In this document: piece after piece, positions 222 through 36,226 of the stretch
Numbering within the stretch: position 1 is the first letter of the stretch
How the letters are laid out: every line of letters begins with the position of its first letter
Source of the DNA: Endomicrobium sp.
GTDB taxonomy: Bacteria; Elusimicrobiota; Endomicrobiia; Endomicrobiales; Endomicrobiaceae
NCBI GenBank assembly: GCA_031273645.1
Contig: JAISRM010000144.1
Coordinates: 1 to 36,512 of the forward strand
Length of the DNA stretch: 36,512 bases
Direction: 5' to 3'
Translations under genes and position numbers: made by a program
Notes under the pieces: generated by a model
The model's input: only the letters and a program-made list of their open reading frames with translations
Told to the model about the DNA's origin: nothing
Database searches by the model: none

Positions 222-1025
222 AACCGTCCTTCCCGTGAAAGCGGGACAGACTTCGTCTGTGTTTTGTCATTGCCGCGAAAGCGGGACAGACTTCGTCTGG
301 TTTGTCATTCCCGCGAAAGCGGGACAGACTTCGCGTCTGTGGTTTGTCATTCCCGTGAAAACGGGAATCCATGTTTACTAAAAAATTCTTTTTACATCTC
401 GTCTTTAAAAGAAATAATGTTAGAAGCTATATTAATATTAAAAATGGATTCCCGTTTTCACGGGAATGACAGACTTTGAAAAACAATTAACAAAACAGCC
501 TTTGTCTGTGTTCATAAAACAGGCGAAGCCTGTCCCGTGAAAACGGGAATCCATGTTTACTAAAAAATTCTTTTTACACCTCGTTTTCAAAAAAAATAAT
601 GTTAGAGGCTATATTAATATTAAACATGGATTCCCACCCGATAAAAACACTCGGGTGCAGGCTGCTTAGGAAGAACAAATATTAAAAACATGGGAATGAC
701 GGACTTTGAAAAACAATTAACACAACAGCCTTTGTCTGTGTTCATAAAACAGGCGAAGCCTGTCCCGTGAAAACGGGAATCCATGTTTACTAAAAAATTC
801 TTTTTACACCTCGTCTTTAAAAGAAATAATGTTAGAAGCTATATTAATATTAAAAATGGATTCCCATTTTCATGGGAATGACAGACACAAACAAAACAGG
901 CGAAGCCTGCAGCCTTTGGTTGTTTTATAAAAACAGACGAAGTCTGACTAATATTAAAAGCGGATTTCAGTTTTCACGGGACAAAACAGAGGCAGACTTG
1001 TCTTCTATAAAACAGACGAAATCTG
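222..1025. repeat. Intergenic mosaic repeat cluster R1 (hairpin modules, MITE-like units, ~230-bp tandem duplication)
   Basis: Read directly. Three tandem GTCATT(G/C)CCGCGAAAGCGGGACAGACTTCG(C)GTCTG units lie at about 265-342, followed by a 127-bp inverted-repeat element (345-471). Two near-identical ~230-bp units follow (461-690 and 691-883), then CAGRCGAAGYCTG mini-palindromes up to 1025. The same modules recur in nine other intergenic gaps. Confidence 0.9.
345..471 (+). mobile_element. 127-bp MITE-like non-autonomous element with perfect 28-bp terminal inverted repeats
   Basis: TGTCATTCCCGTGAAAACGGGAATCCAT (345-372) is the exact reverse complement of 444-471, around an AT-rich 71-bp core. 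Near-identical copies occur at 761-883 and, inverted, at 9872-9998. No transposase is in the window, so mobility is inferred only from copy number and the TIRs. Confidence 0.5.
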
Positions 1026-1075
1026 AAAATTGACTTTCAACTGAAAAAATATTAGAATTAACAATCGTTTTTTAC

Positions 1076-1147
1076 GGCGGCGTAGCTCAGGGGTAGAGCA
1101 GAGGACTCATAAGCCTTTGGCCGTAGGTTCAATTCCTACCGCCGCCA
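1076..1147 (+). tRNA. tRNA with CAU anticodon (elongator tRNA-Met, or tRNA-Ile2 if C34 is lysidinylated)
   Basis: 72-nt cloverleaf: acceptor GGCGGCG/CGCCGCC, D-arm GCTC-AGGGGTA-GAGC, anticodon loop CT-CAT-AA, 5-nt variable loop, T-arm GTAGG-TTCAATT-CCTAC, discriminator A. No CCA is encoded and a T-run follows. G1-C72 is paired and the anticodon stem lacks three G:C pairs, so it is not an initiator. Confidence 0.9.
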
Positions 1148-1278
1148 TTTTTTCGCAGCTGCCGAAATGCCGAAATCTTGCAATTCCCTGAAAATATATT
1201 TTGCCGCTTGTCTTTGTTTAGCTGTCCTCATTTTATAAAATCATTTAACATTTCAATATAAAGAGCTACACTTTTCTT

Positions 1279-9178: not shown

Positions 9179-9233
9179 TAAATATCCTGAGGTATTTTTC
9201 AATCTTGATTTAAAAAAATTTATAAAGAAAAAA

Positions 9234-9259
9234 AGCCCCGAAGAAAAATCTTCGGGGCT
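9234..9259. terminator. Bidirectional intrinsic terminator shared by convergent aroQ and cspA
   Basis: A 10-bp perfect stem AGCCCCGAAG / CTTCGGGGCT with a 6-nt loop. It is flanked by an A-run upstream and T-rich sequence downstream, and lies between two convergent stop codons. Confidence 0.8.
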
Positions 9260-9277
9260 TTCATGTTTTTGGTTAGG

Positions 9278-9630: not shown

Positions 9631-10136
9631 AGGTTGTCATTGCCGAAAGTATTAATGATCTTTTATTCCTAAGCAGCCTGCGCCCGAATGTTTTTATCGG
9701 GTGTAAAAAGAATTTTTTAGTAAACATGTGTTTGTCATTCCCGTGTTTTTAATATTTGTTCTTCCTTAGCAGCCTGCACTCGAGTGTTTTTATCGGGTGG
9801 GGATCCATGTTTAATATTAATATAGTTTCTAACATTATTTCTTTTCAGACCGTGTCTGTTTTATTTGTGTCTGTCATTCCCATGAAAATGGGAATCCATT
9901 TTTAATATAAATATAGCTTCTAACATTATTTCTTTTAAAGACACAATGTAAAAAAAATTGTTTAGTAAACGTGGATTCCCGCTTTCGCGGGAATGACAAA
10001 CCAGACTGCGTCTGAGAGAATTTTTTAGCAAACTTGTATCCCACTTTCGTGGGAATGACAAAACGGCTCAAGCTGCCAATCCCATAAAAACAGACGAAGT
10101 CTGTACCATAAAACAGGCGAAGCCTGATGAAGTCTG
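9631..10136. repeat. Intergenic mosaic repeat cluster R2
   Basis: Same modules as R1, mostly in inverted orientation. It includes the C module (9665-9700 and 9760-9800), a 127-bp element (9872-9998), the hairpin TCCCACTTTCGTGGGA (10039-10054), and CAGACGAAGTCTG / CAGGCGAAGCCTG palindromes (10090-10126). Confidence 0.9.
9872..9998 (-). mobile_element. Inverted copy of the 127-bp MITE-like element
   Basis: TGTCATTCCCATGAAAATGGGAATCCAT ... ACGTGGATTCCCGCTTTCGCGGGAATGACA. It is collinear with the reverse complement of 345-471. The two terminal hairpins carry different but internally compensated stems. Confidence 0.5.
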
Positions 10137-11250: not shown

Positions 11251-11308
11251 CAGGCAAAGCCTGCAGACAAAATTTAAAATAGACGAAGTCTAAAACAGGC
11301 GAAGCCTG
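11251..11308. repeat. Two mini-palindromes of the repeat family between pepP and efp
   Basis: CAGGCAAAGCCTG (11251-11263) starts directly after the pepP stop. CAGGCGAAGCCTG lies at 11296-11308. Confidence 0.85.
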
Positions 11309-15350: not shown

Positions 15351-15929
15351 AGTGTATCAGCGCTAACTGTCAGCAGTTAACTGATTTTTAAACTTGCAGG
15401 CTTCGCCTGTTTTATTTGTGCCCGTCATTCCCGTGAAAACGGGACAGACTTCGTCTGTTTTATGGGATTGGCGGCCAGTGTCTGTTTTGTTAATTGTTTT
15501 TCAAGGTCTGTCATTCCCATGAAAATGGGACAGGCTTCGCCTGTTTTATGGAACGCAGCCAGTGTCTGTTTTGTTTGCGTCTGTCATTTCCATGAAAATG
15601 GAAACCGCCTCTCGCTGTCATTCCCATGTTTTTAATATTTGTTCTTCCTTAGCAGCCTGCACTCGAGTGTTTTTATCGGGTGGGAATCCATGTTTAATAT
15701 TAATATAGCTTCTAACATTATTTCTTTTCAGACTGCGTCTGTTTTTATAAAACAACCGAAAGCTGTAAAAAGAATTTTTTAGCAAACTTGGATTCCCATT
15801 TTCATGGGAATGACAAACCGGACGCAGTATGTCCTGAAAGTTTTTATGTGGGTTGCAGACTGCGTCTGTTTTGTTTTTGTCTGTCTTTCCTGAAAGTATT
15901 AATGTAGGTTGGCTGCAGCAAGCTGCGGG
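15351..15929. repeat. Intergenic mosaic repeat cluster R5
   Basis: Contains an S module (15354-15395), three H hairpins each fused to CAG(A/G)CTTCG(T/C)CTGTTTTAT, a 200-bp composite element, and the palindromic box CTGCAGCAAGCTGCGGG (15913-15929). Confidence 0.9.
15616..15815 (-). mobile_element. 200-bp composite MITE-like element (inverted orientation)
   Basis: TGTCATTCCC (15616-15625) and GGGAATGACA (15806-15815) are the termini. The interior is the reverse complement of the H-A-C layout seen at 531-700 and 23853-24052. Confidence 0.55.
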
Positions 15930-18090: not shown

Positions 18091-18942
18091 CAGCAGGCTT
18101 CGCCTGTTTTTAAAGATTAATTGTTTACTATTGTTTTGGTTGTCATTATGACCTGCGCGCAGCAAGCTGCGCGGTATCAGCGTTAACTGTCAGCGCAAAC
18201 TATCAGCGATAGCTGTCAGCGGTCAACTGATTTTTTAAACATGGATTTCCACCCGATAAAAACACTCGAGCGCAGACTGCTAAGGAAGAACAAATATTAA
18301 AATCACGGGAATGACAGGCACAAAAAAAACAGACGGAGTCTGCAGCCTTCAGCTGTTTTATAAGAACAGATGCGGTCTGAAAAGAAATAATGTTAGAAAC
18401 TATATTAATATTAAAAATGGATTCCCTTTTTCACGGGAATGACAGGCACAAAAAAAACAGACGAAGTCTGTTCCGCTTTTGCGGCAATGACAACTTGAAA
18501 AACAGGCGAAGCCTGATTTTTAACTGCCATAATAAAAATAGAAGTTATCAATAGACAGAGAGCTTCAAACACAAAAAAACAGGCGAAGCCTGCAGCCTTC
18601 GGCTGTTTTATGAGAACAGACGCGGTCTGAAAAGAAATAATGTTAGAGGCTATATTAATATTAAACATGGATTCCCGTTTTCACGGGAATGACAGACCTT
18701 GAAAAACAGGCGAAGCCTGCAGATGAAGTCTGTTCCGCTTTTGCGACAATGACAACTTGAAAAACAGGCGAAGCCTGATTTTTAACTGCCATAATAAAAA
18801 TAGAAGTTATCAATAGACAGCAAGCTTCAAACACAAAAAAACAGGCGAAGCCTGCTGTGGATGATTAGGGAAAAAGGACATTTAGACTTTCGGTAATGAC
18901 AGTTAAGCTGCGCCTTGCGGCAAGCTGCGGGGTACAGGTTAA
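18091..18942. repeat. Intergenic mosaic repeat cluster R6, the largest, with a ~250-bp tandem duplication
   Basis: Contains a P hairpin (18094-18106), a palindromic box (18153-18174), an S module (18175-18240) and a C module (18241-18315). Two tandem units follow (18343-18592 and 18593-18854), each ending in the 78-nt F module. Confidence 0.92.
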
Positions 18943-20045: not shown

Positions 20046-20060
20046 AAGGGAGCAAAATCT

Positions 20061-21692
20061 ATGGAAAAAAATAACGACGTTTTAGGCGCAATAAACAGGG
20101 GTAACCCTACTCCGTCGGGATTATGCACCCTTTGCAGAGCGGACTGTCAAGGCAAATGCGAAACATGGCTGTCGTCAATAAAAGGCAGAAAAATGCTCTA
20201 TCCCAGAGACTTCGGCGTTGTAACGGCAGGCAGCGGCATTGAAACGCAGACCGGAATTTCTTACGACGCGCTTAGAATAAACGGATACTGTTACGGAGCG
20301 GCCGGACTTCCTAAAGGCTTATCCGATTCTCAAGACGACTGCGTTTTTCCAAACGTTAACACCGAAATTTCATTTGGAACAAAAATCAAAACAAAAGCGC
20401 GCATCCCGTTAATGACGGGCGCTTTGGGCTCCACGTTTATAGCGGCAAAATATTGGAACTCTTTTGCCATAGGCGCGGCTTTAGCGGGGTTTCCGATAGT
20501 TATAGGCGAAAACGTCGTCGGCGTTGACAAATCTTCCTCGCTTGAAAACGGCAAAATAAACAAAGCTCCGGAACTTGAAAGGCGTATCGACGCGTATTTA
20601 AAATATTACGACGGGTTTGGCGCAATAATAGTTCAGATGAACGTTGAAGACACAAGAAACGGCGTGGCGCAATACATAATAGACAAGTACGGCGACAAAG
20701 TGATTTTAGAGCTGAAATGGGGGCAAGGCGCAAAAAATATCGGCGGCGAAATTCAAGTTACAGATTTGGAATACGCGCTTTTTTTAAAAAACAGAGGATA
20801 CGTTGTTGACCCCGACCCGACGGCCGCCGAAGTTCAGGCGGCGTTTAAAGCGGGCGCCATAAAATCTTTTGCCCGCCACAGCAGAATAGGATACACCAAC
20901 TTAAACACAGCAGCGCAAGTGCAGGAAGATTTCAAAAAAAGTGTAGAATATCTTCGGAGCATAGGGTTTAAGCGCATATCGCTTAAGACCGGTTCTTACG
21001 GTATGGAAGCGCTGGCTATGTCGATAAAACTTGCTTCCGAAACGGAACTCGATTTGCTTACTATAGACGGTTCCGGCGGCGGCACGGGTATGAGCCCGTG
21101 GAACATGATGCAGTCGTGGGGAGTTCCTTCCATACTTCTTCATGCAAAAGCCGCGCAATATGCGGCCGCTCTTAGCGCGCGCGGAAAAAAAGTTGCAGAT
21201 ATAGCTTTTGCCGGAGGGTTTGCAAGAGAAGACCAAATTTTTAAAGCTTTAGCGCTTGGCGCGCCGTTCGTTAAATTAATATGTATGGGCCGAGCCGTTA
21301 TGATTCCCGGCTTTTTAGGTTCAAACATAGAAGGCGCGATAAAACCTGACGAAAAAGACGCGCTAAACGGCAACTGGAGCCAGCTGCCGCCGTCGTTAAA
21401 AGAGCACGGCTCATCTGCGGAAGAAATTTTTGCCGGCTATTACGACGTAGAAAAGAAAATAGGAAAATCTGAAATGAAAAACATTCCTTACGGCGCAATT
21501 GCAATTTGGACGCTTGCCGATAAATTAACCTGCGGCTTGCAGCAGCTTATGGCGGGAGCGCGCAGATTTTCAATGCCGGCAATTTCAAGAGACGATATTT
21601 TTTCAGTCAACAGAGAAACAGAAAAAGAAACAGGAATTAAATTCATAACAGACGCCCAAGACGAAAGCGCGTTAAACATATTAAATTCCTAA
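20061..21692 (+). CDS. FMN-binding glutamate-synthase-family protein (GltB domain-2-like) with an N-terminal Cys cluster
   Basis: 543 aa with IDGSGGGTGMSPW and FAGGFAREDQIFKALALGAPFV, typical of the glutamate synthase FMN/TIM domain. C-x2-C-x3-C-x3-C (CTLCRADCQGKC) lies at aa 22-33. GGGAG is the RBS, 15 nt after the upstream stop. Confidence 0.75.
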   Translation: MEKNNDVLGAINRGNPTPSGLCTLCRADCQGKCETWLSSIKGRKMLYPRDFGVVTAGSGIETQTGISYDALRINGYCYGAAGLPKGLSDSQDDCVFPNVNTEISFGTKIKTKARIPLMTGALGSTFIAAKYWNSFAIGAALAGFPIVIGENVVGVDKSSSLENGKINKAPELERRIDAYLKYYDGFGAIIVQMNVEDTRNGVAQYIIDKYGDKVILELKWGQGAKNIGGEIQVTDLEYALFLKNRGYVVDPDPTAAEVQAAFKAGAIKSFARHSRIGYTNLNTAAQVQEDFKKSVEYLRSIGFKRISLKTGSYGMEALAMSIKLASETELDLLTIDGSGGGTGMSPWNMMQSWGVPSILLHAKAAQYAAALSARGKKVADIAFAGGFAREDQIFKALALGAPFVKLICMGRAVMIPGFLGSNIEGAIKPDEKDALNGNWSQLPPSLKEHGSSAEEIFAGYYDVEKKIGKSEMKNIPYGAIAIWTLADKLTCGLQQLMAGARRFSMPAISRDDIFSVNRETEKETGIKFITDAQDESALNILNS

Positions 21693-21786
21693 CAGACTGC
21701 GTCTGTTGAAAGGCAGGCTCTTTGTTTAAAAAATCGGCGTTAACTGCTGACAGTCAGCGATACTGCCGTACAGCTTGCTGCGCGGA
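21692..21786. repeat. Short repeat cluster R7 (P hairpin, S-like module, inverted palindromic box)
   Basis: ACAGACTGCGTCTGT (21692-21706) abuts the stop codon. It is followed by GTTAACTGCTGACAGTCAGCGATACTG and CCGTACAGCTTGCTGCGCGG (21766-21785). Another degenerate piece lies at 22085-22130. Confidence 0.8.
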
Positions 21787-22005: not shown

Positions 22006-22045
22006 AAAAAGAAGCCCGCAAACAAAATCCGCGGGCTTCTTTTTT
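22006..22045. terminator. Strong bidirectional intrinsic terminator
   Basis: AAAAA, then GAAGCCCGC (22011-22019), an 11-nt loop, GCGGGCTTC (22031-22039) and TTTTTT. The 9-bp stem is perfect. Confidence 0.8.
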
Positions 22046-22197
22046 ACGCGCGCCCCTAATTTCAAAACGTCTGTAATGCAACCAAACAGTCTTCGGCTGT
22101 TTTATGAAATAGCCGTGTCTGTTTTGTCGTCAATTCTTAACGCACTCTTGTAATATTAATCTATCCCCAAAAACCAGACCATATGTAATATACATAT

Positions 22198-22239: not shown

Positions 22240-22252
22240 TAAAGGATTATAT

Positions 22253-23661: not shown

Positions 23662-23756
23662 ATGAAATTCCCAGATAAAATAAGCCCTATTTTAGCGCCA
23701 TATTTGATTTATGGAAGCAAAACGGTTTGTTATATTACCTCATGATTGTTTGCTTA

Positions 23757-24266
23757 AATTGTACCCCGCCGGTTTGTAATTGCCATGAAAATAGGAATCA
23801 AAGTTTGCTAACAGCCTTCGGCTGTTTTATAAAAACAGACGCAGTCCGGGTCTGTCATTCCCATGAAAATGGGAATCCACGTTTGCTAAAAAAATCTTTT
23901 TACAGCCTTCGGCTGTTTTATAAAAACAGACGCAGTCTGAAAAGAAATAATGTTAGAGGCTATATTAATATTAAACATGGATTCCCACCCGATAAAAACA
24001 CTCGAGTGCAGGCTGCTAAGGAAGAACAAATATTAAAATCACGGGAATGACAGGCACAAAAAAAACAGACGAAGTCTGTCCCGTTTTCGCGGGAATGACA
24101 GACCTTGAAAAACAGGCGAAGCCTGATTTTTAACTGCCATAATAAAAATGGAAGTTATCAATAGACAGAAAGCTTCAAGCACAAAAAAACAGGCGAAGCC
24201 TGTCTTGTTTTCGCGGGATGACGAAGCAGACGCGTCTTTTTTGATAAAACAGCAGCCGAAGGCTGA
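23757..24266. repeat. Intergenic mosaic repeat cluster R8
   Basis: Contains an inverted GGGGTACAATTT box, H hairpins, a 200-bp composite element, an F module (24125-24202) and CAGCCGAAGGCTG (24253-24265). Confidence 0.9.
23853..24052 (+). mobile_element. 200-bp composite MITE-like element, best-preserved copy
   Basis: TGTCATTCCCATGAAAATGGGAATCCA ... ATGGATTCCC-[C module]-CGGGAATGACA. The C module sits inside the right terminal hairpin. A 35-nt double-palindrome insert (GCCTTCGGCTGTTTTATAAAAACAGACGCAGTCTG, 23904-23938) sits inside the AT-rich core. Confidence 0.55.
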
Positions 24267-24320
24267 ATTAATGGGTTAAGAAAAAGAAGGATTGAAAATC
24301 CAAATCCAAGCGGGCGGGGG

Positions 24321-25334: not shown

Positions 25335-25404
25335 ATTATATAAATAAACCATGCAAAAAACCATTTTTAATTTGAAAAACGTAATTTTGTGAACGGCAAC
25401 GCGG

Positions 25405-25620
25405 ATCAACCCGCCCGATAAAGACACTCGAGCGCAGGCTGCTAAGGAATAAAAAATATTAAAAATGCGAAAATGACAAGCTGCGCTTGTCGTATCATCA
25501 TATTTCGCGGGAATGACAACAAAGATTTTGGAATGACAACAAAGATTCGTACTGTCGTTTCATAAAACAGACGAAGTCTGCATAAAACAGGCGAAGCCTG
25601 CATAAAACAGACTTCGCCTG
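25405..25620. repeat. Intergenic mosaic repeat cluster R9
   Basis: Contains a C module (25409-25475), the direct repeat GGAATGACAACAAAGATT x2 (25509-25548), and three 20-nt tandem units CATAAAACAG(A/G)C(GAA/TTC)G(T/C)CTG (25561-25620). Confidence 0.9.
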
Positions 25621-25639
25621 TAGTTTGAGTTTGGACTGA

Positions 25640-28600
25640 CTATGCGGCGGACAGTATGCTTCTTATTGCGCGGGTGTCTGCTGTGTCGGGCTTAAAATTG
25701 TCTTTATCAAATTCAACTTCTTTGCTGTACACCATTATAAGTTCTATTGCTTTTTCGGCTGTTTTTGTGCCAAGCGGGGCTTGTTTAAGCGCATCTTCTT
25801 TGTCTGGCGTTTCTGCGTCCGGCCGGGCTTGCATAAGCGCATCTGTAATTTTTTCAATATAATTTTTATCATTGGCATTATTTAAACCGTCTATAACAGA
25901 TTCATTGTCAGCGGGATACTTCGTCTCAAAATATTTTATCGCAAGCAGCTGCCCGAGCAGTTTTTCTATATTTTTATTTTTCAAGCCGGAAGCGCGGCCT
26001 TCGGCTTTTAACTCTGCTGCGATAAGAAGTTTTTCAAGCGCGCCTTTATAAAAGGCTGTCATTATTTTATGCTTTTCTTTTAGTATTTCCTGTTTTTTTG
26101 CTATTGTAAGTTTTTCTTCTGACAACAATAATGAAGTTTGCGCCTCTATTTTATCTATATATCTTGAAAAAATAGTGTTGTAATAAAGATCTAACGGCAG
26201 CTGCGAGTATTGGCTAATAACTGCATGAACCGTAATATCCGGAAACTCTTTTAAGATTTTAGCGACGTCGATATTTCTTGCTGTTTCTAAAGCGGTTTCG
26301 GGCGTCAACGGACGGTCAAAAATGTTTGCAAGCGCTTTTGAGGAAGTCCATATATCAAGAACGTACTTTGCAAAACCCGAACGATCTGCGCCAAGATGAT
26401 TTTCTATAGCGGATTCATATATGACCGTTACGATGTTTGAATTTCTTAAAGCATTGTCAAAATCGGCGGTTTTATCGTCTATTATTTCAACGTTTTGGGG
26501 GCTTACCGCAATGTCTAAAGCGTCGGTAATAGTTTTATTTTCAACGGAATACGTTCCGTCAAAAAGTTTCTGCAATGCGGGTTCCGCCGCGTCTTCAACC
26601 ATGATGCTTATTCCGGCGGCGCGCGCTGTTTGGATAACGGAATTTAATTTGCCGGCATTACTTAGATTTTCGGCAAGAGCGGCGGTAATTATAATGTTGC
26701 CGTTAGTTGCTTTTGTAAAAATTGTTTCAAAATATTTGTTAAAATCTTCAATTGTGTTTATTTTGTCTAAAAATACTATAAACCTCTTTGCATACGTCCA
26801 TGCCTCAGCCTGCTTTAGCGTACGCGTATGGTCAAACAGCGTTAAAGCATAATCGCCTTGCATTCTGTCAACAGCCATATAAATGCGCGGTATGCCGTTT
26901 TCGGCATATTCATAGCCGTTTTTAATTTTGTTCAACACCTGCGCAGCTTCTTTAGATAAATTTTCGTAAAAATACGTTTTTGCAGGGTCATAAGGCTGCT
27001 TTGTAAGAGTTTCAAACTCGCTCCGAAGTTGCGCATATGAAACTGTTGCATCAACTACCAGCGGATCTATAGATATTTGACCGGAAACCGGAAGATAAGA
27101 GCTTATTATTTCTTTGAATTTGCCCTCAGACAATAATTGCGCTAAATTAGCGGCGTCTATATTTTCTGCATAGATAACGACAGTTCCGTCAATATAACCG
27201 CTATATACGGATTTATCGCCGGTTTTTATTCCGGTATTTGAAAAAGAATCCATGTTTTCGGCAAACAAAGCGGCGTCAGCCATATATACGGGCAAAGACG
27301 CTCTGTTTTCCGATAATGTTAAAGCCTGAGAACCAAATATTTTTTTTGCGGCTTCAAATTTATCAGAAGAGACATTGATTATGTTTACTTCCGCAACTGA
27401 TTGAGTTGTTTTGCCTGTAATCTGTTTTAGCAAGGGAACTTTAACAAAAAGTTTGTTATATAAATTTTTAAGAAGCCTGCCTATATCGGCGAATGTGCCG
27501 TCTTTGGTCATCATATATATAAATAAAGCTGCAGCCGCTATCGCTAATGCGGGAGACACAAAATTAAAAAAACCTGCGGCCGCAAGAACGCCTATCATAG
27601 CAATAGGAGAACTTTGCAGCCTGCTGCCTTCGGAAGTTCTTTGGGAAAGGCGCGCCGCCGCGTCCGCCTGCGCGGCATCTTGCGTCAAGGGCGCTTGCGC
27701 TGAAGGCTCTTGAGTTGAAGACTCTTGAGTTGAAAACTCTTGGGTTGAAAGTATAAAGTCCGCAAGCTCCTGCGAATATTTTGATGCATTTATTATTTCT
27801 GTTTCAAGAAACTCGCGCGCATTTGTATCAGAAGTTCTTTTCCATGCGTCTTGCATAAGTTTAAAAATTATATTCAAATCTGTTGCCGGCGTTTTCATGT
27901 CAAAAATTTCCGGCGAAATATCATCTGTAAAACCATTATTATCTAAAAGCGCGTACTGAGAAGAGGCGTACCTCCGGCTTCCCATATTTAAACTCCACGC
28001 AAATATAAGATTATCTCTGTTTAGATTAATCGTTTTGTTTTTGAAAACAATATAAGATTTTGCCGCTCCCCGAGCTAAATGTTCGTCTAAAATATCGGCG
28101 TTTTGCGCCGCTATAGAAGCCCTGAAATCGTAGTGGCTGTCAGTTGTCGGTAATTGCGCGTTTTTAAAAGCCGCTAAAATATCTTCGGAAAGCTTGTAAG
28201 AAGGATTTGCAATTTTTAAATAGAGAAAAGCAAAAGCTCTGTATTTAATTTCTTTAAAATCTTCGTTTTTATTTTCAACTATATCGGCTAAGAAACTCTG
28301 ATTTTGCCTGTTTTTAATAATTTGCATATACTTAATATCGCTGTCATCAAAACGCTGTTGCAGTTCTTCCTGAGAAGCAGCGTCCATATTATCTGCAATT
28401 GCATTATCAACCATAGCAAGATAATCAAAAACTTCGCCGGCAGATTCTGCGTTTTGAAATATATTTGACTGTATCAAATCATCAAGCTTTAATAAAGCGT
28501 TTTGACGCATTGAAACGATTTTTGAAAATATGTTATCTTTGTTTAGCCTGCCAATTTCGCTTATATCGGTTCTCAACTTTCTTCTGAAATCGCTCATCGC

Positions 28601-31600
28601 AAGAATATCTACTCCGGGCGCCTGCGCATTATAAAATAAATATCTGTTGACGCCGTCGCTTATTACAGGCATTTCTTTTAACAGCTGCTTAACAAATTCA
28701 TTATCGGTTTCCACCGGCACTAAGAAATCTGTTTTGCTGTCCCAATTGTAAGAAATCTGTAAAATGTTAAAAGCGTCCTGCAAATTTTTGTCTTGCGTAA
28801 AGTCGCTGCTTTGTATGCTGTTTCTTTGCGCTTGTATGAACTTCTCTGCATCATATACGCTGTCAAAAAACAGCTCTGCAATTAAAGGCGTAACTTGAGC
28901 AGGCGCGGTTTGCGCGGGCGCTTGCGCGGGCGTTTGCGCAGGCGCAGAGGTTTTGCGTCCAAATAAATTATTAATAAACCGCTGTACTCTTTTTAAGACA
29001 GGAAGCTGTTGCGCTTCTTCATCTTCTTTTTTTCTGCCTGAAGCAAACAAAGCAAAAGGAAGAAGAAATGCCCCCGAAGTTTTAGCTTTACCGGCATTTA
29101 AAGAGCCTGCCGACAACACTGTAAAGGAATTAAAATTCGGTTTGCCGTTATTATTTGGATTTAATTTGCCGTTATAATGAAGAGTCGTCGCGCCAAAGTC
29201 TGCCGCAACTTCTTTAAGCTTTCCGGAACGAGTTACAACAGCTTCATAATAACCGTTCTTTTTCGTCATTTTAACTGTCCCTGCAACGGTCCCGGCAAGA
29301 TTGTCATTGCTATAATAAACCGTAGAGCCGTCTTCATAAATCATTCTTAAAAGAAAATTCGGCGAATTAGAATTGCTGTCAAAACCTATTCTTATAACAT
29401 CCTCTTTTTCAATATTTTTTCCGGCCATCCCATCAAACACGGCAACCGCCCAATTCTCTCCGCCATAATAATTTGGCGCGCCGTATTTAAACTTTACCGC
29501 CGCTTCGGCGCTTTGCGCTGCTTGAGCTTTCGGTTTTTCCGCATCTACAGACTGCGAAGGTTTTTGCGCCGGCGCAGCTTTGGCTATTTCTTGCGGGGTC
29601 GCAACATAAGTCTTTTTTAACTCAGATACTATGACAAAAGGCTGTACGTCTTTTGGAAAAAGTCCCCATGCAGTTGAAGCCAGACTTTTTAACTTTGGAA
29701 ATATGATCCAGCCGTGTCCGGTTTGAGCAAAATAATCAACATCGGAATAAGGCAAAAGTCCCTCAGATGATTTTGCGCTTTCAATGTATTGCTTCATGGA
29801 ATTTATTGCGGCAAGCAAAAGCGGGTCAGGCGTAACGGCTAACACTTCTTCCGCCGCTTTTATAAAACCGAAAGTCCATTCAAAACTGACTATCTTGTTC
29901 TGCCTTGAATTTATAAAATCAACTCCTATATATTCGCCTTTTTCATTTTTTACTCCGGCTCCTTCCAGCGTGCGTTTTAAAAGATCTTTGCTGAAATTGC
30001 CGTCATTCATATTTTTATTTAATTTTTCTACTCCCAGCGCCAATATCATCCACGTTTGACAGTCTGTGGCAAATTTTAAATTCTTTGAACCTTTGTCATC
30101 TATTCCCGTTACAAAATAACCAATCTCTTTGTTGTACATTCCCATTAAAGCTTTTTCAAGCTTGTCGGCTGCGGCGGCATAAGTTTTTCTGTCGGTTGCA
30201 TTTGCGTATTGCGCTAAAGCTCTTAAAGCCGATAAAGCCGATATATTATTTTCAACGGATACGACTTTATTGTAATCTATGCCCAGATACGCATAATGCC
30301 CTACTTTATCTTCGGGAGCCATTACTATTAAACCTGAAGGCTGCTGCAAAGCGATCATGGCTTTGCCTAAATCGTTCATAATTTCATAAGCTTTATTGCC
30401 GATGTCCGTGCCTTTGTAGGCATTGTATATGTCGGCCATAGTCATTGCGATCCATGCGTTTTCTCCGGTTATAGGCTGAGCCTGATCTTTAAGGAATCTT
30501 CCATAAATGTCCACGATTTTCCAAAAATATCCGTGTCCGGCCGCAATATTTGCTCCGTTATAATTAAAATCTTTATTGCTTCTTACATCTCCTGCCTGAT
30601 GTAGAGCGGTAACCATTTTGCCGACCAGATCTTTGTTTTCTTCAGGGTATAAAAGCAGCGCTTTTACATAAACGCTCCAATCATAAAGTATAACGCCCCT
30701 TTCGGCTATAAGTTTTTGCGCGTCATTGTTTATTTCGTCGGTTGAACCGGCATAACTTCCGGTCAGCGCAGCGCCCTTAGAAAATACCGGATAAACGCCG
30801 CGTATCTGATTGTTGCTTATCGGAATTTCCACAGTAACTTGAGGCGTTGGAAGCGGATTAGGGTTGACCGGAGCGCCGGCAAGACTGTGCGCCAGCATAA
30901 GCATGAAAAATAATCCTACAATAAATTTCGCCATTTTGACCAGCGCCGACGTTGATTTGCTCGGCTGTTCAGACGGCTTTGTCTCGTCTTTTTCACGCTG
31001 CTTTTGAAAAGCCGCTTTTTGAAAAAATTCAGGCATTCTGCCTATAAGTTCGTAGGGAATTTCGTCAACAGATTTATCTTTGTAATTTTGTTCTATTTCG
31101 GGGATAACGCCGTAAACGCCTTTTTTTGATAAATCGTAATTTGAGTAGGCGGCGTAAATGAAAATTTTCTTAAACGTTTCATAAGTTTGGGCATTATTAA
31201 TATCGGTCAAAGAATATAAATCAAAAGAGTTTGAAAGAACATTTTGCGCTAAAGCGATTATGTCTGTAAACCCAAGCGTGAAACTTTCGAGATTTTGCAT
31301 GTCGGAACTTTCCGGCGGCTTTTGAACGTTTTGAAGCGTGTAAGAGCCGTCGGCATTTTTTGAAAACGTAATTTCTGCGCCGGATATTTTAATATTATAA
31401 TAAGTATCCGATACGTTGATTACAAGATTATTTTCCCCGTAAACATCTTTTAAAAAGCCGGTAAGCATATCAAGAGCGCCGGCGGTAAAAACGCTTTGCT
31501 GCGTTAAAGCGCCTATCAATTCTTGCGGCTTCACATTTTCAAAAATTGACTTTAAATCGCTTACGGCTTTCTTCGCCTGCTCAGAACTTAGAGCCTTTAG

Positions 31601-33229
31601 CTCATATAAGCGCGCAGCCGCGTTAAAAATAGTGAACGCTCTTTCAAGCGCGGGCAAGTCAAGCGACGGCGCTAAAGTCTGGCTGAAAAACATGCTCTGC
31701 TGGGCTATTATCTGCCTGTAATTTGCTTCGGCGGCTTCAAGCCCTTCGGTAATTCTGGGCGTTATTACGACATTGCTTATTTTTTTTGCGTCTAAAAGTT
31801 CCGATATTCCGTGAGTATGGTATCCTCCGGTCACGACTATTATTATTTCTGTTGAATTATTTAAAACGGCAAGAGGCGGCTCGTTTTCAATTTTATCGCC
31901 GGATACAAGCTGCGTGTTTTTATTGATATTTTGCAAAAATATTTCGTTTCTTTGATTGTTAACGCTGTAATAATCGTTTAAAACTGGAAAATTTTCGCTT
32001 AAAGATTTTAAATGATCGGAAGATGAATATTTTGCATATATGTCTCTAAATCTTTGAAAAGTTTCCATAAAGTAGCGTTCGTCTTTTGCCGTAAGAGAAT
32101 TGGTAAGATAGCCTTGAAAAAAGTAAAAGAAATTGTTTAAGAAAGATATTTCGTTTTCCTGTATGGAAGAAGAAAGAGCCGATATTATTGTTTCGCGCAG
32201 TTTCTGTTCCTGAAAAAATAAAGCCACGGGGTTGATCTGCGAACTTAAATTTTTTACGGCGACAAAACCGCGAAGATTCGGTTTTGAATTTCCTTCAATT
32301 CCGTAATACTCTATATATTTGCATAAAGCGTCAATATCTTTAAAATTGCCGGTGCCTTCCGACATTTTGTTAAATTGGGAATAACTGATTTTGTTTTTCA
32401 GTTCCGAAACGTATTGGCTAAGTTCGGCGTTTACTTTGTTTACTTTAAGTTTTTCGGCCATTTCGTTTATCGCAATGATTTTTTTAAGTTCTCCGTACTC
32501 GCTTTCGTCTATCGGCAAAATGTTGCCGTAAACTTCGGGAGCGGCGTTTATCTGCTTTACGTATTTAAACATGCTTGCATAAAATTTGTGGTCGCTTATT
32601 TTTTTCGCATTATATCTTGCCGCAAGATTTAAGAAATTTTTGCAGGACGCGCCCAAATATTTGTTTGAAAGCCAGCCGATTTCATTTTTAACTTTAGCTA
32701 TGACGACTTGGTACTGGCTTTCATTTGAATATATTTTTCCTAAACGCTCGACATTTTCTTTGTGAACATTTGCGTCTTCAAGCCCGAAAACGTTGTTCTT
32801 ATTTTTTTCAAACGCATAATATTCCACGCCGGTAAGCCTTCCGTCTAAAATAAGCTGTTCGGCTATTTTGTTTTTAATATCGCCGCCGGAAGAAATTGAC
32901 GAAAGCCACGAAAGATCCACTTTTCCGCTTGCGCCTTCCACATAAATCGCTTTTACATTATATTTGTCGTCAAGTTTTTCTATTATCTGAGCTATATTTT
33001 TTTGAACCTGAGGATGACTGTGCAAATCCTGAATATTTACGATGACCTGTTTTGTGCCGTAACTTTTGGCGTCTATTATGTGGCCTAAATCAGACGAAAA
33101 AATTTGGTCGTTTAAAACGTTGACGTCGTTTGCCGCAATCTGCGCCGCGCCGGCCGCTGCAGACTGGGCTGTAACGCTCCATAAAAAACAAAATGCGGTA
33201 AAACTTGCAAGCGTTTTCTTAATACTCAT
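25640..33229 (-). CDS. Giant 2529-aa modular envelope protein, family unknown
   Basis: Uninterrupted ORF. GGAGG (33239-33235), 5 nt, then ATG 33229 (Met13 of the supplied translation). The Sec signal is MSIKKTLASFTAFCFLWSVTAQSAAA. There are three internal hydrophobic segments and three low-complexity linkers. I recognise no full-length family. Confidence 0.85.
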   Translation of the reverse strand: MSIKKTLASFTAFCFLWSVTAQSAAAGAAQIAANDVNVLNDQIFSSDLGHIIDAKSYGTKQVIVNIQDLHSHPQVQKNIAQIIEKLDDKYNVKAIYVEGASGKVDLSWLSSISSGGDIKNKIAEQLILDGRLTGVEYYAFEKNKNNVFGLEDANVHKENVERLGKIYSNESQYQVVIAKVKNEIGWLSNKYLGASCKNFLNLAARYNAKKISDHKFYASMFKYVKQINAAPEVYGNILPIDESEYGELKKIIAINEMAEKLKVNKVNAELSQYVSELKNKISYSQFNKMSEGTGNFKDIDALCKYIEYYGIEGNSKPNLRGFVAVKNLSSQINPVALFFQEQKLRETIISALSSSIQENEISFLNNFFYFFQGYLTNSLTAKDERYFMETFQRFRDIYAKYSSSDHLKSLSENFPVLNDYYSVNNQRNEIFLQNINKNTQLVSGDKIENEPPLAVLNNSTEIIIVVTGGYHTHGISELLDAKKISNVVITPRITEGLEAAEANYRQIIAQQSMFFSQTLAPSLDLPALERAFTIFNAAARLYELKALSSEQAKKAVSDLKSIFENVKPQELIGALTQQSVFTAGALDMLTGFLKDVYGENNLVINVSDTYYNIKISGAEITFSKNADGSYTLQNVQKPPESSDMQNLESFTLGFTDIIALAQNVLSNSFDLYSLTDINNAQTYETFKKIFIYAAYSNYDLSKKGVYGVIPEIEQNYKDKSVDEIPYELIGRMPEFFQKAAFQKQREKDETKPSEQPSKSTSALVKMAKFIVGLFFMLMLAHSLAGAPVNPNPLPTPQVTVEIPISNNQIRGVYPVFSKGAALTGSYAGSTDEINNDAQKLIAERGVILYDWSVYVKALLLYPEENKDLVGKMVTALHQAGDVRSNKDFNYNGANIAAGHGYFWKIVDIYGRFLKDQAQPITGENAWIAMTMADIYNAYKGTDIGNKAYEIMNDLGKAMIALQQPSGLIVMAPEDKVGHYAYLGIDYNKVVSVENNISALSALRALAQYANATDRKTYAAAADKLEKALMGMYNKEIGYFVTGIDDKGSKNLKFATDCQTWMILALGVEKLNKNMNDGNFSKDLLKRTLEGAGVKNEKGEYIGVDFINSRQNKIVSFEWTFGFIKAAEEVLAVTPDPLLLAAINSMKQYIESAKSSEGLLPYSDVDYFAQTGHGWIIFPKLKSLASTAWGLFPKDVQPFVIVSELKKTYVATPQEIAKAAPAQKPSQSVDAEKPKAQAAQSAEAAVKFKYGAPNYYGGENWAVAVFDGMAGKNIEKEDVIRIGFDSNSNSPNFLLRMIYEDGSTVYYSNDNLAGTVAGTVKMTKKNGYYEAVVTRSGKLKEVAADFGATTLHYNGKLNPNNNGKPNFNSFTVLSAGSLNAGKAKTSGAFLLPFALFASGRKKEDEEAQQLPVLKRVQRFINNLFGRKTSAPAQTPAQAPAQTAPAQVTPLIAELFFDSVYDAEKFIQAQRNSIQSSDFTQDKNLQDAFNILQISYNWDSKTDFLVPVETDNEFVKQLLKEMPVISDGVNRYLFYNAQAPGVDILAMSDFRRKLRTDISEIGRLNKDNIFSKIVSMRQNALLKLDDLIQSNIFQNAESAGEVFDYLAMVDNAIADNMDAASQEELQQRFDDSDIKYMQIIKNRQNQSFLADIVENKNEDFKEIKYRAFAFLYLKIANPSYKLSEDILAAFKNAQLPTTDSHYDFRASIAAQNADILDEHLARGAAKSYIVFKNKTINLNRDNLIFAWSLNMGSRRYASSQYALLDNNGFTDDISPEIFDMKTPATDLNIIFKLMQDAWKRTSDTNAREFLETEIINASKYSQELADFILSTQEFSTQESSTQEPSAQAPLTQDAAQADAAARLSQRTSEGSRLQSSPIAMIGVLAAAGFFNFVSPALAIAAAALFIYMMTKDGTFADIGRLLKNLYNKLFVKVPLLKQITGKTTQSVAEVNIINVSSDKFEAAKKIFGSQALTLSENRASLPVYMADAALFAENMDSFSNTGIKTGDKSVYSGYIDGTVVIYAENIDAANLAQLLSEGKFKEIISSYLPVSGQISIDPLVVDATVSYAQLRSEFETLTKQPYDPAKTYFYENLSKEAAQVLNKIKNGYEYAENGIPRIYMAVDRMQGDYALTLFDHTRTLKQAEAWTYAKRFIVFLDKINTIEDFNKYFETIFTKATNGNIIITAALAENLSNAGKLNSVIQTARAAGISIMVEDAAEPALQKLFDGTYSVENKTITDALDIAVSPQNVEIIDDKTADFDNALRNSNIVTVIYESAIENHLGADRSGFAKYVLDIWTSSKALANIFDRPLTPETALETARNIDVAKILKEFPDITVHAVISQYSQLPLDLYYNTIFSRYIDKIEAQTSLLLSEEKLTIAKKQEILKEKHKIMTAFYKGALEKLLIAAELKAEGRASGLKNKNIEKLLGQLLAIKYFETKYPADNESVIDGLNNANDKNYIEKITDALMQARPDAETPDKEDALKQAPLGTKTAEKAIELIMVYSKEVEFDKDNFKPDTADTRAIRSILSAA
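27707..27751 (-). repeat. In-frame 15-bp x3 tandem repeat (encodes STQEF/STQES/STQEP linker) in the giant gene
   Basis: CTCTTGAGTTGAAGA / CTCTTGAGTTGAAAA / CTCTTGGGTTGAAAG, read directly. Confidence 0.9.
28909..28944 (-). repeat. In-frame 12-bp x3 tandem repeat (encodes the PAQ(A/T) linker) in the giant gene
   Basis: TTTGCGCGGGCG / CTTGCGCGGGCG / TTTGCGCAGGCG, read directly. Confidence 0.9.
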
Positions 33230-33239
33230 TTGTTCCTCC

Positions 33240-33279
33240 AAAAATAAAAAACCGGCTTTTAACAAGCAAAGCCGGTTTT
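33240..33279 (-). terminator. Intrinsic terminator/attenuator hairpin spanning the stop codon of the 169-aa gene, immediately upstream of the giant-gene RBS
   Basis: A perfect 12-bp stem (33268-33279 pairs with 33248-33259) with an 8-nt loop. On the minus strand it is followed by TTTATTTT. The stop codon at 33259-33261 lies at the stem/loop edge, and the GGAGG of the giant gene starts at 33239. Confidence 0.6.
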
Positions 33280-33768
33280 CATTATTATTAATTTTTTTAT
33301 TTTTACAGATGATTCTGCATTAAACAAACGCAAAAGCCCTATGTACAAAAGCATTGCCGACACAATAAACGTTAAAAATAATAAAAATAAAAGATGATGC
33401 TGCGCCGACGAGCCGCTAAACAAATAATTGCCGGCGGGCAAAAGCGTAAAAAGTTTTTTATAAGAACTTGAATTATATACTGCCGGATTATAAGAAAAAA
33501 ATTGTTTTTCGTTTTTCAACAAAGAATCGCCCCCGCCGGCAGAAAAACTTAAAACCGTAAAAGAGTTTTTAAAGCCGGCTCTTATCTGCGCGGCTATTTG
33601 GCAATAATCTTTAACAAACATTATTTTGTTATCTATAACTTTATGCAAACCTGCGGAATTTTGCCCGCAAAAAGTTTCCTCAAAAAAAGCAGAAGCTCCG
33701 GCCTCGCTTAAAGCAAACCCGGGCATAAGCAAAAACAAAACCAATAAAGAAACTATAATTTTTTTCAT
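33259..33768 (-). CDS. 169-aa hypothetical protein with N-terminal signal peptide and C-terminal membrane anchor
   Basis: MKKIIVSLLVLFLLMPGFALSEA signal, a soluble ~110-aa part with two Cys, and a C-terminal hydrophobic stretch HHLLFLLFLTFIVSAMLLYIGLL. No recognisable family and no clear SD sequence. Confidence 0.65.
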   Translation of the reverse strand: MKKIIVSLLVLFLLMPGFALSEAGASAFFEETFCGQNSAGLHKVIDNKIMFVKDYCQIAAQIRAGFKNSFTVLSFSAGGGDSLLKNEKQFFSYNPAVYNSSSYKKLFTLLPAGNYLFSGSSAQHHLLFLLFLTFIVSAMLLYIGLLRLFNAESSVKIKKLIIMKTGFAC

Positions 33769-33776
33769 TGTATCTA

Positions 33777-33805
33777 AGAATAGCCTTATTTAAAATTTTT
33801 GTCAA
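33777..33805 (-). promoter_or_regulatory. Candidate sigma70-type promoter in the clpA / 169-aa gene spacer
   Basis: The minus strand reads TTGACA (33805-33800), a 17-nt spacer, then TATTCT (33782-33777). This leaves only ~8 nt before ATG 33768, so the transcript would be nearly leaderless. Confidence 0.35.
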
Positions 33806-33820
33806 CAGGCTGCGCCTGTT

Positions 33821-36079
33821 TTATGCGTCTGGTTTTGTCATAACGCAGACGAAGCCTGCTTTAACCGTAATTTTATATTCCCCGTCAACATAATCCGCTT
33901 TTGCGCTGCCGCCTTTGGAAAGGTCGCCAAAAAGTATTTCATCGGCAAAAGGGGATTTAATTTTTTCTTCAATAACGCGGCCGATGTTTCTTGCGCCAAA
34001 TTTTGCGCTGTAGCCGTCTTGGGCAAGTTTGTTTATACAATTGTCGCTGGCTTCAAACGTAATATTTTTTTGAGCAAGCAAATCTTTAAAGAGATTGAGT
34101 TCTTTGCAAACAATAGATTTAATCATTTCTTTTGAAAGATGTTTAAAATGAATAACAGCGTCAAGCCTGTTGCGAAATTCGGGATTAAAAATTTTTTCCA
34201 CCGCGCTGTTTACTGCAGAAAAGTCTATAGATTTATCATTAAAACCGATAAGCTTTTTTCCTATTTCATGAGCGCCGGCATTGCTTGTCATAATTAAAAC
34301 CGCATTTCTAAAGTCAGCTCTGCGGCCGTTATTGTCAGTTAAAGTTGCATAATCCATTATTTGAAGCAAAATATTGTAAATGTCGCTGTGAGCTTTTTCA
34401 ATTTCATCTAAAAGCACAACGCAATGAGGGTGTTTTCGCAGCGCGTCGGTAAGCAAGCCGCCTTCTTCATAGCCGACATATCCCGGAGGGGAACCTATAA
34501 GACGCGATATCGTGTGTTTTTCCTGATATTCGCTCATATCAAAACGGTGTAAAGTAATTCCTAAAATGTCGGCAAGCCCGCGGGCAAGCTCTGTTTTGCC
34601 TACTCCGGTCGGACCTACAAACATGAAATTTGCAATTGGTTTTTCTAAAGCGCGCAGCCCCGCCCGGGATTGTTTTATTGCTTTTACGACGGCGCTTACG
34701 GCATCATCCTGACCAAAAATGCGTTCTAACAATTTGCTTTCCAAAGATTTCAGTTTATCTTTTTCGCTTTCTATTACAGAACGCTGCGGTATTTTTGCCG
34801 ATTTTGCAATAATGCTTTCTATCAGTTTAGCGTCAATTTTTTCTGTTTTCATATTTTTTGCAGCTTTTATATGCGTAAAAGCGCCTGCTTCGTCAATTAT
34901 ATCAATAGCTTTGTCGGGAAGTCTGCGTTCGGTAATATATTGCGCAGAAAGCTTTACGGCAGTTTCAATTGCTTCGTCTGTATAGCTGACATGATGAAAT
35001 TCTTCATACTTAGATTTAAGACCCTGCAAAATAGTAATGGAATCGTCGATACTTGGTTCATCTATGTCAATTTTTTGAAAACGTCTTGAAAAAGCCCGCT
35101 CTTTATCAAAAAATTTAGCGTATTCTTCGTAAGTGGTGGAACCTATGCAGCGTATTTTGCCTGAGGCAAGGGCAGGTTTTAAAAGGTTTGCCGCATCAAG
35201 GGAATTTCCCGACACAGAGCCAAAACCTACAAGAGTGTGAATTTCGTCAATAAAGAGAATTGCGTTTTCCCTATTGACAATTTCATCTATAACCCGTTTT
35301 AAGCGCTCTTCAAAATCACCGCGGTATTTTGTTCCGGCAAGTAAAGCCGCTAAATCAAGAGAAAAAATAGAAAAATCGGCAAGCATAGGAGCAATATCAT
35401 TGTTGACAATTTTTTGAGCAAGGCCTTCGATGATTACGGTTTTTCCCACTCCGGAATCGCCTACAAGAACGGGATTATTTTTAAGGCGGCGGCAAAGAAC
35501 CTGTATTATGCGTTCAAGTTCGGTTTCGCGCCCGATTAAAGGTTCTAATTTGTTTTCGCCTGCAAGTTTTGTGAGGTTTATCGCATAACGTTCAAGCGCA
35601 TTTTTCTTTTTGCCCGCTTTTTCATGTGGATCTGAAATATTTTCTTCTTCATCTTCAATGTCATTATGAGAAAGCGCCGTCAGCAAATCAATTCGTTTAA
35701 TTCCGGCTTTACGCATAGAATAAGAACTGTAATATTTGGTTTCATCATATAAAGCTATTAAAATATCTGCAATGTCAACCGTATCTTTTTGAGCGTTCAG
35801 GCTGTTTTGCTGCGCGCGGTTTAGAATGTTTTGAAAACCTATGCTGCTTACGGGTTCTGTTTTTGCGCTAATAACGTCAACTTTTTGTTTAAAGTATTCT
35901 TCAATAAGAGTTCTAATCAATTTTATGTCTGCGCCGCAGTATGAAAATATTTCCTGAACCTCGCTGAAAGCGAGCGCCGCATATAAAATATGTTCGGGCG
36001 TAATATATTCGTGACGGTATTTGCGCGCCTCATTACAGGCGGCTTCTATAACAGATTGCGAAAGCTGGGAAATGTCCAT
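33821..36079 (-). CDS. clpA: ATP-dependent Clp protease ATP-binding subunit ClpA
   Basis: 752 aa. It has a Clp N-domain ([11 protein letters not shown]) and two AAA+ modules (GDSGVGKT / ILFIDEIH and [11 protein letters not shown] / [11 protein letters not shown]) with no ClpB-type middle domain. AGAGG is the RBS. Confidence 0.92.
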
Positions 36080-36121
36080 ATTTATGCCTCTTTAAACGGC
36101 AAAGCCGTTGTTAATTGTTAT

Positions 36122-36226
36122 TACGCAGACTTCGTCTGTTTTATGGGACGGTCGTATCTGTTTTGTCATCCCGCGCTTTTTAATTTTTCTTCCTAAGCAG
36201 CTTGCGCTCGAATACTCGCCGTCATT
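36122..36226. repeat. Intergenic repeat cluster R10 (degenerate)
   Basis: CAGACTTCGTCTGTTTTATGGG (36126-36147) followed by an eroded H/C module, TTTTGTCATCCCGCGCTTTTTAATTTTTCTTCCTAAGCAGCTTGCGCTCGA. Confidence 0.8.

Follow-up and report, generated by a model that had tools for sequence, protein, structure and literature searches.

The 36,512-bp contig JAISRM010000144.1 (Endomicrobium sp., assembly GCA_031273645.1; the window below means this whole stretch of DNA) has intergenic gaps filled with short palindromic repeats, raising the question of what these repeats are and how they came to be arranged as they are. A first-pass annotation described one mosaic, hairpin-rich intergenic family, organized like enterobacterial bacterial interspersed mosaic elements (BIMEs), whose sequences match no known repeat family. 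Our analysis indicates that one of the modules, the hairpin H, is by its sequence the already described dRS3/NTS (Neisseria Transformation Sequence) hairpin of Neisseria, that is, an Ssn-related motif (SRM). We hold with moderate confidence that the gaps are mosaic arrays built on this hairpin in an Endomicrobiaceae bacterium, resembling the intergenic mosaic elements known from Neisseria (NIMEs), with a proposed action of the single-stranded DNA (ssDNA) nuclease Ssn.

The repeats are extensive and almost purely intergenic. Our module map places halves of H, the AT-rich core modules A1 and A2, modules C, S and F, and ~55 P-type mini-hairpins in 11 intergenic stretches, in both orientations and at the positions reported in the first-pass annotation; the stretches total 3,972 bp, or 10.9% of the window, close to the ~11% given there. 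Self-comparison of the window yielded 32 families of direct repeats as well as 107 inverted pairs, nearly all of them within the same gaps, including a closely similar inverted pair (15615-15819 and 23849-24053, 96% over 205 nt). The mosaic, BIME-like organization is thereby borne out. Compared with dinucleotide shuffles, the window holds 9 perfect copies of ATTCCC-N8-GGGAAT (0.05 expected), 20 copies of GTCATTCCC (0.08 expected) and 33 copies of the P palindrome CAGNCGAAGNCTG (0.00 expected). A single P copy is genic, in the last codons and 3′ end of clpA (33846-33858), and the short spacers inside operons carry no modules on the map, as the earlier reader had also seen. We ruled out a CRISPR-like reading because the arrays lack a regular repeat-spacer periodicity. 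In an Rfam scan of the window only the tRNA reached its gathering score, permissive scans of 21650-22270 and 16480-16830 gave terminator-like noise only, and the Endomicrobium genome papers make no mention of these repeats. Since the window is an entire assembled contig, the order of modules inside the longest arrays rests on the assembly.

The dRS3 repeat is defined as ATTCCC[N8]GGGAAT, the 28-nt NTS consensus reads CGTCATTCCCGCGMAVGCGGGAATCYRG, and a degenerate SRM pattern makes it possible to search further phyla (Chenal et al. 2025, PMC11893778). The H copy at 9971-9998 (TGTCATTCCCGCGAAAGCGGGAATCCAC) agrees with the NTS consensus at 26 of 28 positions, with 2 mismatches, and also fits the SRM search pattern, which has 4 matches in the window against 0.03 in shuffles. 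Counting variants fused to P, there are 17 well-formed H hairpins, in which a GTC upstream and a C downstream of the palindrome are kept; the GTC is needed for SsnA cutting, and the C for binding (PMC11893778). The inner two base pairs of the stem are preserved in 14 of the 17 copies through four pair types (GT/AC in 6, AT/AT in 5, GC/GC in 2 and AC/GT in 1). As ssDNA, H is predicted to fold with −7.8 and −9.0 kcal/mol (z −3.0 and −4.1), the stronger values being those of the 9971-9998 copy. A 33-nt H query matches at ~97% over 30 nt at 32-35 places in each of two N. gonorrhoeae chromosomes (entries filed among plasmids), where one dRS3 copy reads CGTCATTCCCGCGAAAGCGGGAATCCAGG, and it also matches Sphingopyxis, Azospirillum, Photobacterium (37 places), Sphingomonas, Novosphingobium and Legionella. 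As far as sequence can tell, H is therefore the same in kind as the Ssn target, and both H and P show compensatory variation. The first-pass annotation had itself named a match to a described repeat family as the finding that would overturn its claim of novelty, so that claim falls for H; it stands for A, C, P, S and F, for which we found no match.

Like dRS3/NTS, H is a 20-bp palindrome, ATTCCC-N8-GGGAAT, with oriented GTC and C flanks, an inner stem and a GAAA-type loop (GCGAAAGC) predicted to form a hairpin in ssDNA. It is almost purely intergenic, it occurs as inverted pairs bracketing a unit as around ssnA elsewhere, and near-identical sequences are found in Neisseria, alphaproteobacteria, gammaproteobacteria and many metagenome contigs. 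It differs from described dRS3/NTS copies in several respects: the host belongs to the Elusimicrobiota (Endomicrobiaceae), a group absent from the main text of PMC11893778; the 3′ flank is CCATG, not CYRG; within 36 kb there is no ssnA; truncation of H or its fusion to P is frequent; and the upstream region, which is variable in Neisseria (PMC11893778), is here a conserved P mini-hairpin followed by a T-rich linker.

This composite defines an oriented basic unit which, on the NTS strand, reads P (CAGRC-TTC-GYCTG), T-rich linker, GTC-ATTCCC-N2-GAAA-N2′-GGGAAT-C. The distance from the end of P to the GTC is 13-14 nt in 8 of 20 exact copies and 4 nt in 2 more, and the linker is conserved as TTTT(A/T)TTTGTG(C/T)CT; by analogy, it would correspond to the zone that SsnA cuts in Neisseria. 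Positions 4 and 10 of P are complementary in 30 of 33 copies through three pair types (G-C, A-T and C-G). Many P copies read GCGAAGC on the opposite strand, a heptamer that forms an unusually stable DNA mini-hairpin; the P stems are 5-6 bp long, with −5.3 kcal/mol as DNA. Tandem forms also occur, of H-P at 226-366 (period 40) and of P at 25561-25612 (period 20). Apart from the repeat family, a 13-14-bp bidirectional terminator hairpin at 9231-9262 is common to the convergent aroQ and cspA genes, and ordinary terminators of this genome thus differ in look from P.

The larger structure is clearest in the type unit at 343-473, in which two H hairpins in inverted orientation flank an A core. Its 28-nt terminal inverted repeats (GTCATTCCCGTGAAAACGGGAATCCATG) have the CCATG side inward and the GTC side outward, and the whole unit is predicted to fold as ssDNA with −36.9 kcal/mol (z −11.6). 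At 625-700 two H halves enclose module C, whereas these halves surround an 8-nt loop in the paralogous copy at 443-470; modules have therefore been exchanged exactly at H. The arrays and their named parts are as follows.

222..1025: array 1, upstream of tRNA-Met, with 3.5 tandem H-P units (226-366), three H/A units and several P
343..473 (+): type unit H+ / A core / H−, the A core 69 nt long with GC 0.17
625..700 (+), within array 1: one C unit inside an H loop, the 52-nt C module separating the halves of a single H hairpin (CATGGATTCCC-[C]-GGGAATGAC)
9631..10136: array 2, between the divergent cspA and pepP
9971..9998 (−), inside the array 2 span: best NTS-like H copy, TGTCATTCCCGCGAAAGCGGGAATCCAC
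11251..11308: array 3, in the pepP-efp spacer, P hairpins only, the first abutting the pepP stop codon
14520..14720: array 4, from gmhA to the rfaE-domain-II gene, with degenerate H, A1, a P-P pair, A2, C and an H half
15351..15929: array 5, with S, three P-linker-H units in direct order, and a C/A2/P/A1 unit bounded by H+ and H−
18091..18942: array 6, in which P abuts the stop codon of the helicase gene; also a GC palindrome, the 13-nt tandem of S, C, two A2/H units and two F
18516-18572, 18778-18834 and 24126-24178: the F copies of the module map
21692..21786: array 7a, with P adjoining the stop codon of gene 20061-21692, a reverse partial S and a GC palindrome
22085..22130: array 7b, P hairpins upstream of abiEi
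23757..24266: array 8, between the convergent abiEii and the 24321-25427 gene, with H, A1, P-P, A2, C, H and F
25405..25620: array 9, with C, H halves and three tandem P units (25561-25612), the latter in terminator orientation for a 2541-aa gene
36122..36226: array 10, upstream of clpA, with P, a degenerate H half and a partial C

Module S repeats 13 nt in tandem, roughly T(A/G)TCAGCGNNANC, with 3.5 copies at 18177-18221, a further copy at 15355 and a partial one at 21745. A near-perfect GC palindrome, CGCGCAGC-AA-GCTGCGCG, precedes the tandem, and several arrays have related GCAGCAAGCTGC palindromes at their gene-proximal edge, immediately upstream of start codons (S and palindrome regions: 18150-18240, 15355-15390, 15913-15928, 18905-18935 and 21745-21785). 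Between arrays 7a and 7b, the GC-rich non-repeat segment 21786-22085 contains 14-nt direct repeats (21805-21834 and 21848-21876, mutually inverted), followed by a strong hairpin with a T run at ~22008-22047; its 88-aa open reading frame (ORF) has no Pfam match, and Rfam gives terminator-type noise only.

NIMEs, described in 2007 as Neisseria-specific (Bentley 2007, PMC1797815), consist of ~50-150-bp RS units of several families flanked by dRS3 inverted repeats (Parkhill 2000; PMC1797815). The arrays in the window have the same plan. Hairpin arrays of dRS3 type, clustered in the 11 intergenic stretches, are split by 50-150-nt repeat units of several families; they bracket genes, and their content varies between paralogous copies. 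One N. gonorrhoeae dRS3-RS-dRS3 unit shows the same H+/RS/H− layout as the type unit. The characteristic GC wave is also present, with hairpins (GC 0.35-0.55) richer in GC than the units between them (79-nt spacers of GC 0.22 in H+/A/H− units, with an A core of GC 0.17). Two features set the arrays apart from NIMEs: the RS-equivalent modules A, C, F and S have unrelated sequences that are private to this lineage, and arrays are found within conserved housekeeping gene order as well, not just around surface-protein genes. Given a host that is not neisserial (Endomicrobiaceae, from AccC and gene order) and RS-like sequences of its own, with only H shared elsewhere, we call these arrays NIME-like rather than NIMEs.

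The units also recall miniature inverted-repeat transposable elements (MITEs) such as Correia elements, which are likewise short, non-coding, multi-copy and intergenic, with ~28-bp terminal inverted repeats and a promoter-like core. Here, however, the ends are hairpins shared with the Ssn cassette, not with a DDE transposon, and the Correia terminal repeat TATAGTGGATTAACAAAAATCAGGACAA had 0 matches in the window with up to 3 mismatches. The flanks of the 28-nt terminal inverted repeats are themselves conserved modules (linker and P), so that no target-site duplication can be read.

The AccC of the window shares 88% identity with the protein from an Endomicrobium metagenome-assembled genome (MAG), and its best ~20 matches are all from Endomicrobiia or Elusimicrobiota; searches for records identical to EF-P and AccB returned nothing. 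A Neisseriaceae host, to which the hairpin and the four copies of GCCGTCTGAA had pointed, was rejected on the evidence of AccC and gene order. Our comparison set comprised 22 Endomicrobiia loci around accC plus ten cspA contigs from a look-up of identical CspA, ~550 kb together. Two of these loci (L201 and L202) share with the window the order speE-like, CarboxypepD_reg protein, aroB, aroQ, cspA, pepP, efp, accB, accC, gmhA, rfaE-II, ThiD2, at 64-76% nucleotide identity. All 32 loci, L201 and L202 included, have short spacers without H, dRS3 or P, and BLAST of the window gaps against them returned no real match. The spacers compare as follows, the last two being free of repeats in the window.

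cspA-pepP: 665 bp in the window, 136 bp in L201
pepP-efp: 73 bp in the window, 29 bp in L201
gmhA-rfaE-II: 315 bp in the window, 30 bp in L201
rfaE-II-ThiD2: 649 bp in the window, genes overlapping in L201
tRNA-Met to next gene: >1,075 bp in the window, 118 bp in L201
aroQ-cspA: 99 bp in the window, 111 bp in L201
efp-accB: 87 bp in the window, 90 bp in L201

Relative to these relatives, the repeats read as lineage-specific insertions. The A pattern had 0 matches in 185,579 species genomes and 0 in metagenome contigs; alignments of the gaps to all fetched loci spanned at most 38 nt and never extended beyond the H hairpin. The 17-nt P pattern gave 4 single matches in viral contigs and 1 P among 214 fetched loci, which we judged to be chance level. 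Modules A, C, P, S and F thus appear to be private, with no match in the collections or relatives searched. The copies are not confined to this locus, a point on which the first-pass description depended: a spurious ORF on another contig (P0002), a 2,854-bp sequence from JGI, encodes C-reverse, H, A1, P-P, A2 and H, an order absent from the window, and at least one further array therefore lies outside the window contig.

The ThiD2 ORF as listed (184 aa, TTG start, 15943-16066) is ~40 aa longer than its L201 and L202 orthologs (143 aa). Its true start probably lies further downstream, in which case the repeat-bearing spacer is even longer. Synteny with L201 and L202 stops after ThiD2 and gives way to a patchwork (16497-36079, GC 0.35 to 0.475) of cassettes each bracketed by arrays: a helicase of RecD2/PIF1-like type, just 422 aa long; a 2,4-diaminopentanoate-dehydrogenase-like gene and its partner, which has a glutamate-synthase domain; AbiEi/AbiEii; the 24321-25427 gene, which has a weak glycosyl-hydrolase-like match; and a group of a 2541-aa ORF, a 169-aa ORF and clpA. 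Neither the 2541-aa ORF (25640-33265, −) nor the 169-aa ORF downstream of it (33259-33768) had a Pfam or PADLOC match, and the latter had none in NCBIfam.

Which enzyme could act on such a hairpin? The exact pattern GTCATTCCCNNGAAANNGGGAATCCAT occurs in at least 120 metagenome contigs, whose GC ranges from 0.30 to 0.69. In one of them (L082), inverted copies at 1043-1069 (+) and 1378-1404 (−), CCATG sides inward, bracket a gene (1081-1365) for a 94-aa GIY-YIG protein (PF01541, E 9e-16), and in two others (L126 and L137) the motif adjoins homologous GIY-YIG genes. The type unit at 343-473 follows the L082 plan, with a short AT-rich core in place of the gene. The L082 protein is 66% identical to the product of the single N. 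gonorrhoeae locus, and many of its homologs are annotated as GIY-YIG nuclease family. The ssnA product is a single-domain GIY-YIG protein (cd10448) whose gene is often bracketed by NTS, an arrangement its describers likened to an insertion sequence; SsnA binds NTS as ssDNA only, cuts a few bases upstream, and lowers transformation by NTS-bearing DNA, strand-specific ssDNA binding and cleavage having been demonstrated for the Neisseria and Wolbachia homologs only (PMC11893778). By analogy, the enzyme to look for in this organism would be a small GIY-YIG nuclease of the Ssn type, and not the REP-associated tyrosine transposase (RAYT) suggested in the first-pass annotation. As that annotation had stated, no transposase domain is present among the window ORFs (Pfam domain searches included), and GIY-YIG domains are absent from them as well. 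In an Omnitrophota MAG (L030, 18906-18935), a 30-nt exact H copy occupies the final codons of an ORF of 1699 aa (...SRFRGNDK...), which suggests an insertion that extended or altered the reading frame.

We propose the following model. The Ssn/NTS cassette would have reached this lineage horizontally, as indicated by the 27-nt motif being identical across contigs of GC 0.30-0.69. Two inverted P-linker-H units bracket AT-rich A cores, and the halves of one hairpin can enclose C; since hairpins in this layout bracket a GIY-YIG ssnA gene elsewhere, the units resemble an NTS-ssnA-NTS cassette that has lost its gene. A small Ssn-type nuclease, encoded outside the window and acting in trans, would bind the folded hairpin on ssDNA and cut a few bases upstream, in the P-H linker. 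Of genomes with >200 SRMs, 81% have an SsnA homolog (PMC11893778). Recombination or template switching among many hairpins would then have grown and shuffled the arrays, whose main effect, as in Neisseria, may be on the recombination of incoming or replicating ssDNA around the bracketed genes. As side effects, P with T runs could terminate transcription at the edges of arrays, and promoter-like sites could be provided by intact A cores.

Every intact A core (4 copies) contains TTTACA-16-AATAAT, matching 10 of 12 promoter consensus positions, at 391-418, 573-600 and 803-830 (+), directed toward tRNA-Met, and at 9952-9925 (−), directed toward cspA. These sites, which like the terminator-like P with T run are consensus matches only, are among the top-scoring promoter-like ones in the first 19 kb; a P-P pair inserted between A1 and A2 destroys their spacing. 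The idea that the A core is a decayed 5′ end of ssnA was unsupported: it has no Pfam match, and although its sense frame is the best of six against a 4-sequence Ssn profile, the score is just ~2 bits.

Several points weigh against the NIME-like reading. The window encodes no Ssn homolog (tblastn E > 3; Pfam), and 19% of genomes with >200 SRMs lack one (PMC11893778). Only 4 copies fit the strict SRM pattern, many H being truncated or fused to P. Mobility of the units has left no direct sign, with no target-site duplications discerned; a derivation of the A core from ssnA scores just ~2 bits; and the link between Ssn and transformation was demonstrated for N. meningitidis only (PMC11893778).

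We weighed several alternatives. The arrays could be passive products of recombination or template switching whose maintained role is regulatory, with H a relic lacking an acting enzyme, and we give this view a modest chance of being right. Terminator-like sites exceed those in shuffles (73 vs 26.4 and 43 vs 23.4), P plus T run scores as terminator-like, and the nearest P is in terminator orientation at ~7 of 9 gene 3′ ends adjoining arrays, as read from the map, with three tandem P after the 2541-aa gene; the intact A cores are the best promoter-like matches, and no nuclease gene is in the window. But the P stems have just 5-6 bp, many P are wrongly oriented or lie in divergent promoter regions, and in relatives spacers of 30-136 bp that lack P suffice for the same operons. 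The almost perfect conservation of the 28-nt H between phyla, together with its compensatory changes, argues instead for an acting sequence-specific partner. A bolder reading of the arrays would make the Ssn-type nuclease itself the mobilizing enzyme: P-linker-H would be the functional end of gene-less mobile units moved on ssDNA, and Ssn/NTS cassettes a new class of hairpin-dependent transposable element that underwent a recent burst here. The copies are 90-100% identical and have no counterpart in relatives; we regard this reading as unlikely.

That another enzyme family built the mosaic appears improbable. H could be the attachment or target site of a Piv/IS110-type site-specific recombinase, repeated recombination at H building the arrays: dRS3 is a documented integration target of Nf filamentous prophages, a dRS3-specific recombinase was earlier proposed to build NIME arrays (PMC1797815), and the exchange of C for the 8-nt loop occurs exactly at H halves. 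Yet the window has no recombinase, transposase or phage gene, and the documented cross-phylum partner of the motif is ssnA (PMC11893778). We also know of no Piv/IS110-type enzyme of this kind from Endomicrobia. The first-pass suggestion of a repetitive extragenic palindrome (REP)/BIME-type system spread by a RAYT, an IS200/IS605-like Y1 transposase, appears very improbable to us. The likeness to enterobacterial REP/BIMEs and Pseudomonas REPINs is real, in mosaic clusters of short palindromes, linker motifs, both orientations and high intergenic density, and spread is thought to depend on a single trans-acting, hairpin-specific ssDNA enzyme, to which we liken Ssn; the Ssn authors drew the same analogy (PMC11893778). 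Here, however, the hairpin sequence is another one, H matching SRM/NTS and not REP, the gene bracketed by the exact motif encodes a GIY-YIG protein rather than an HUH Y1 enzyme, and no Y1 (IS200/IS605-like) domain was found among the window ORFs. Last, collapsed or chimeric repeats in a metagenome contig might mimic such arrays, as the window is a whole assembled contig whose left end lies ~220 nt from an array; with modules in eleven separate spacers between intact, syntenic genes, and the same modules on the independent P0002 contig, we consider an artefact extremely improbable.

The window also contains GCCGTCTGAA, the core of the neisserial 10-mer uptake sequence, in 4 copies (2580, 12844, 16278 and 30968), all reading TTCAGACGGC on the + strand, in one orientation and inside coding regions. 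Across ~550 kb of Endomicrobiia relatives the 10-mer is absent except for one copy in L018. A zero-order model predicts ~0.05 copies, and higher-order Markov models 0.3-0.5; given the latter expectation, and a general inflation of GC-rich 10-mers in coding DNA of the window, the enrichment is weak, and so is the case for GCCGTCTGAA as a DNA uptake sequence.

Arrays contain, entirely within their bounds, ORFs of 85-107 aa at 216-479 (+), 18411-18668 (−) and 23727-24050 (+); spurious ORFs used as queries matched themselves and, beyond that, the P0002 contig only, and at least two array-internal ORFs have been entered in the protein database as predicted proteins (P0001 and P0003). They are almost certainly spurious gene calls, and such ORFs should stay uncalled as genes in annotation.

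What is already known, then, is H and the NIME-type architecture; the novelty lies in the host phylum, in the private modules that accompany H and in the regular double hairpin of P-linker-H. Endomicrobia are a model group for genome reduction and gene transfer, and our data suggest that the Ssn/NTS cassette spread horizontally into Endomicrobia of the termite-gut type. NIMEs were a Neisseria hallmark in 2007, and it took until 2025 for the dRS3/NTS hairpin to be linked with an enzyme, Ssn, and with the control of natural transformation. A dense and apparently recent expansion of this hairpin in a distant phylum, with repeat-free syntenic relatives at hand, is an independent natural experiment that bears on how such arrays grow and on the role of Ssn outside Neisseria.

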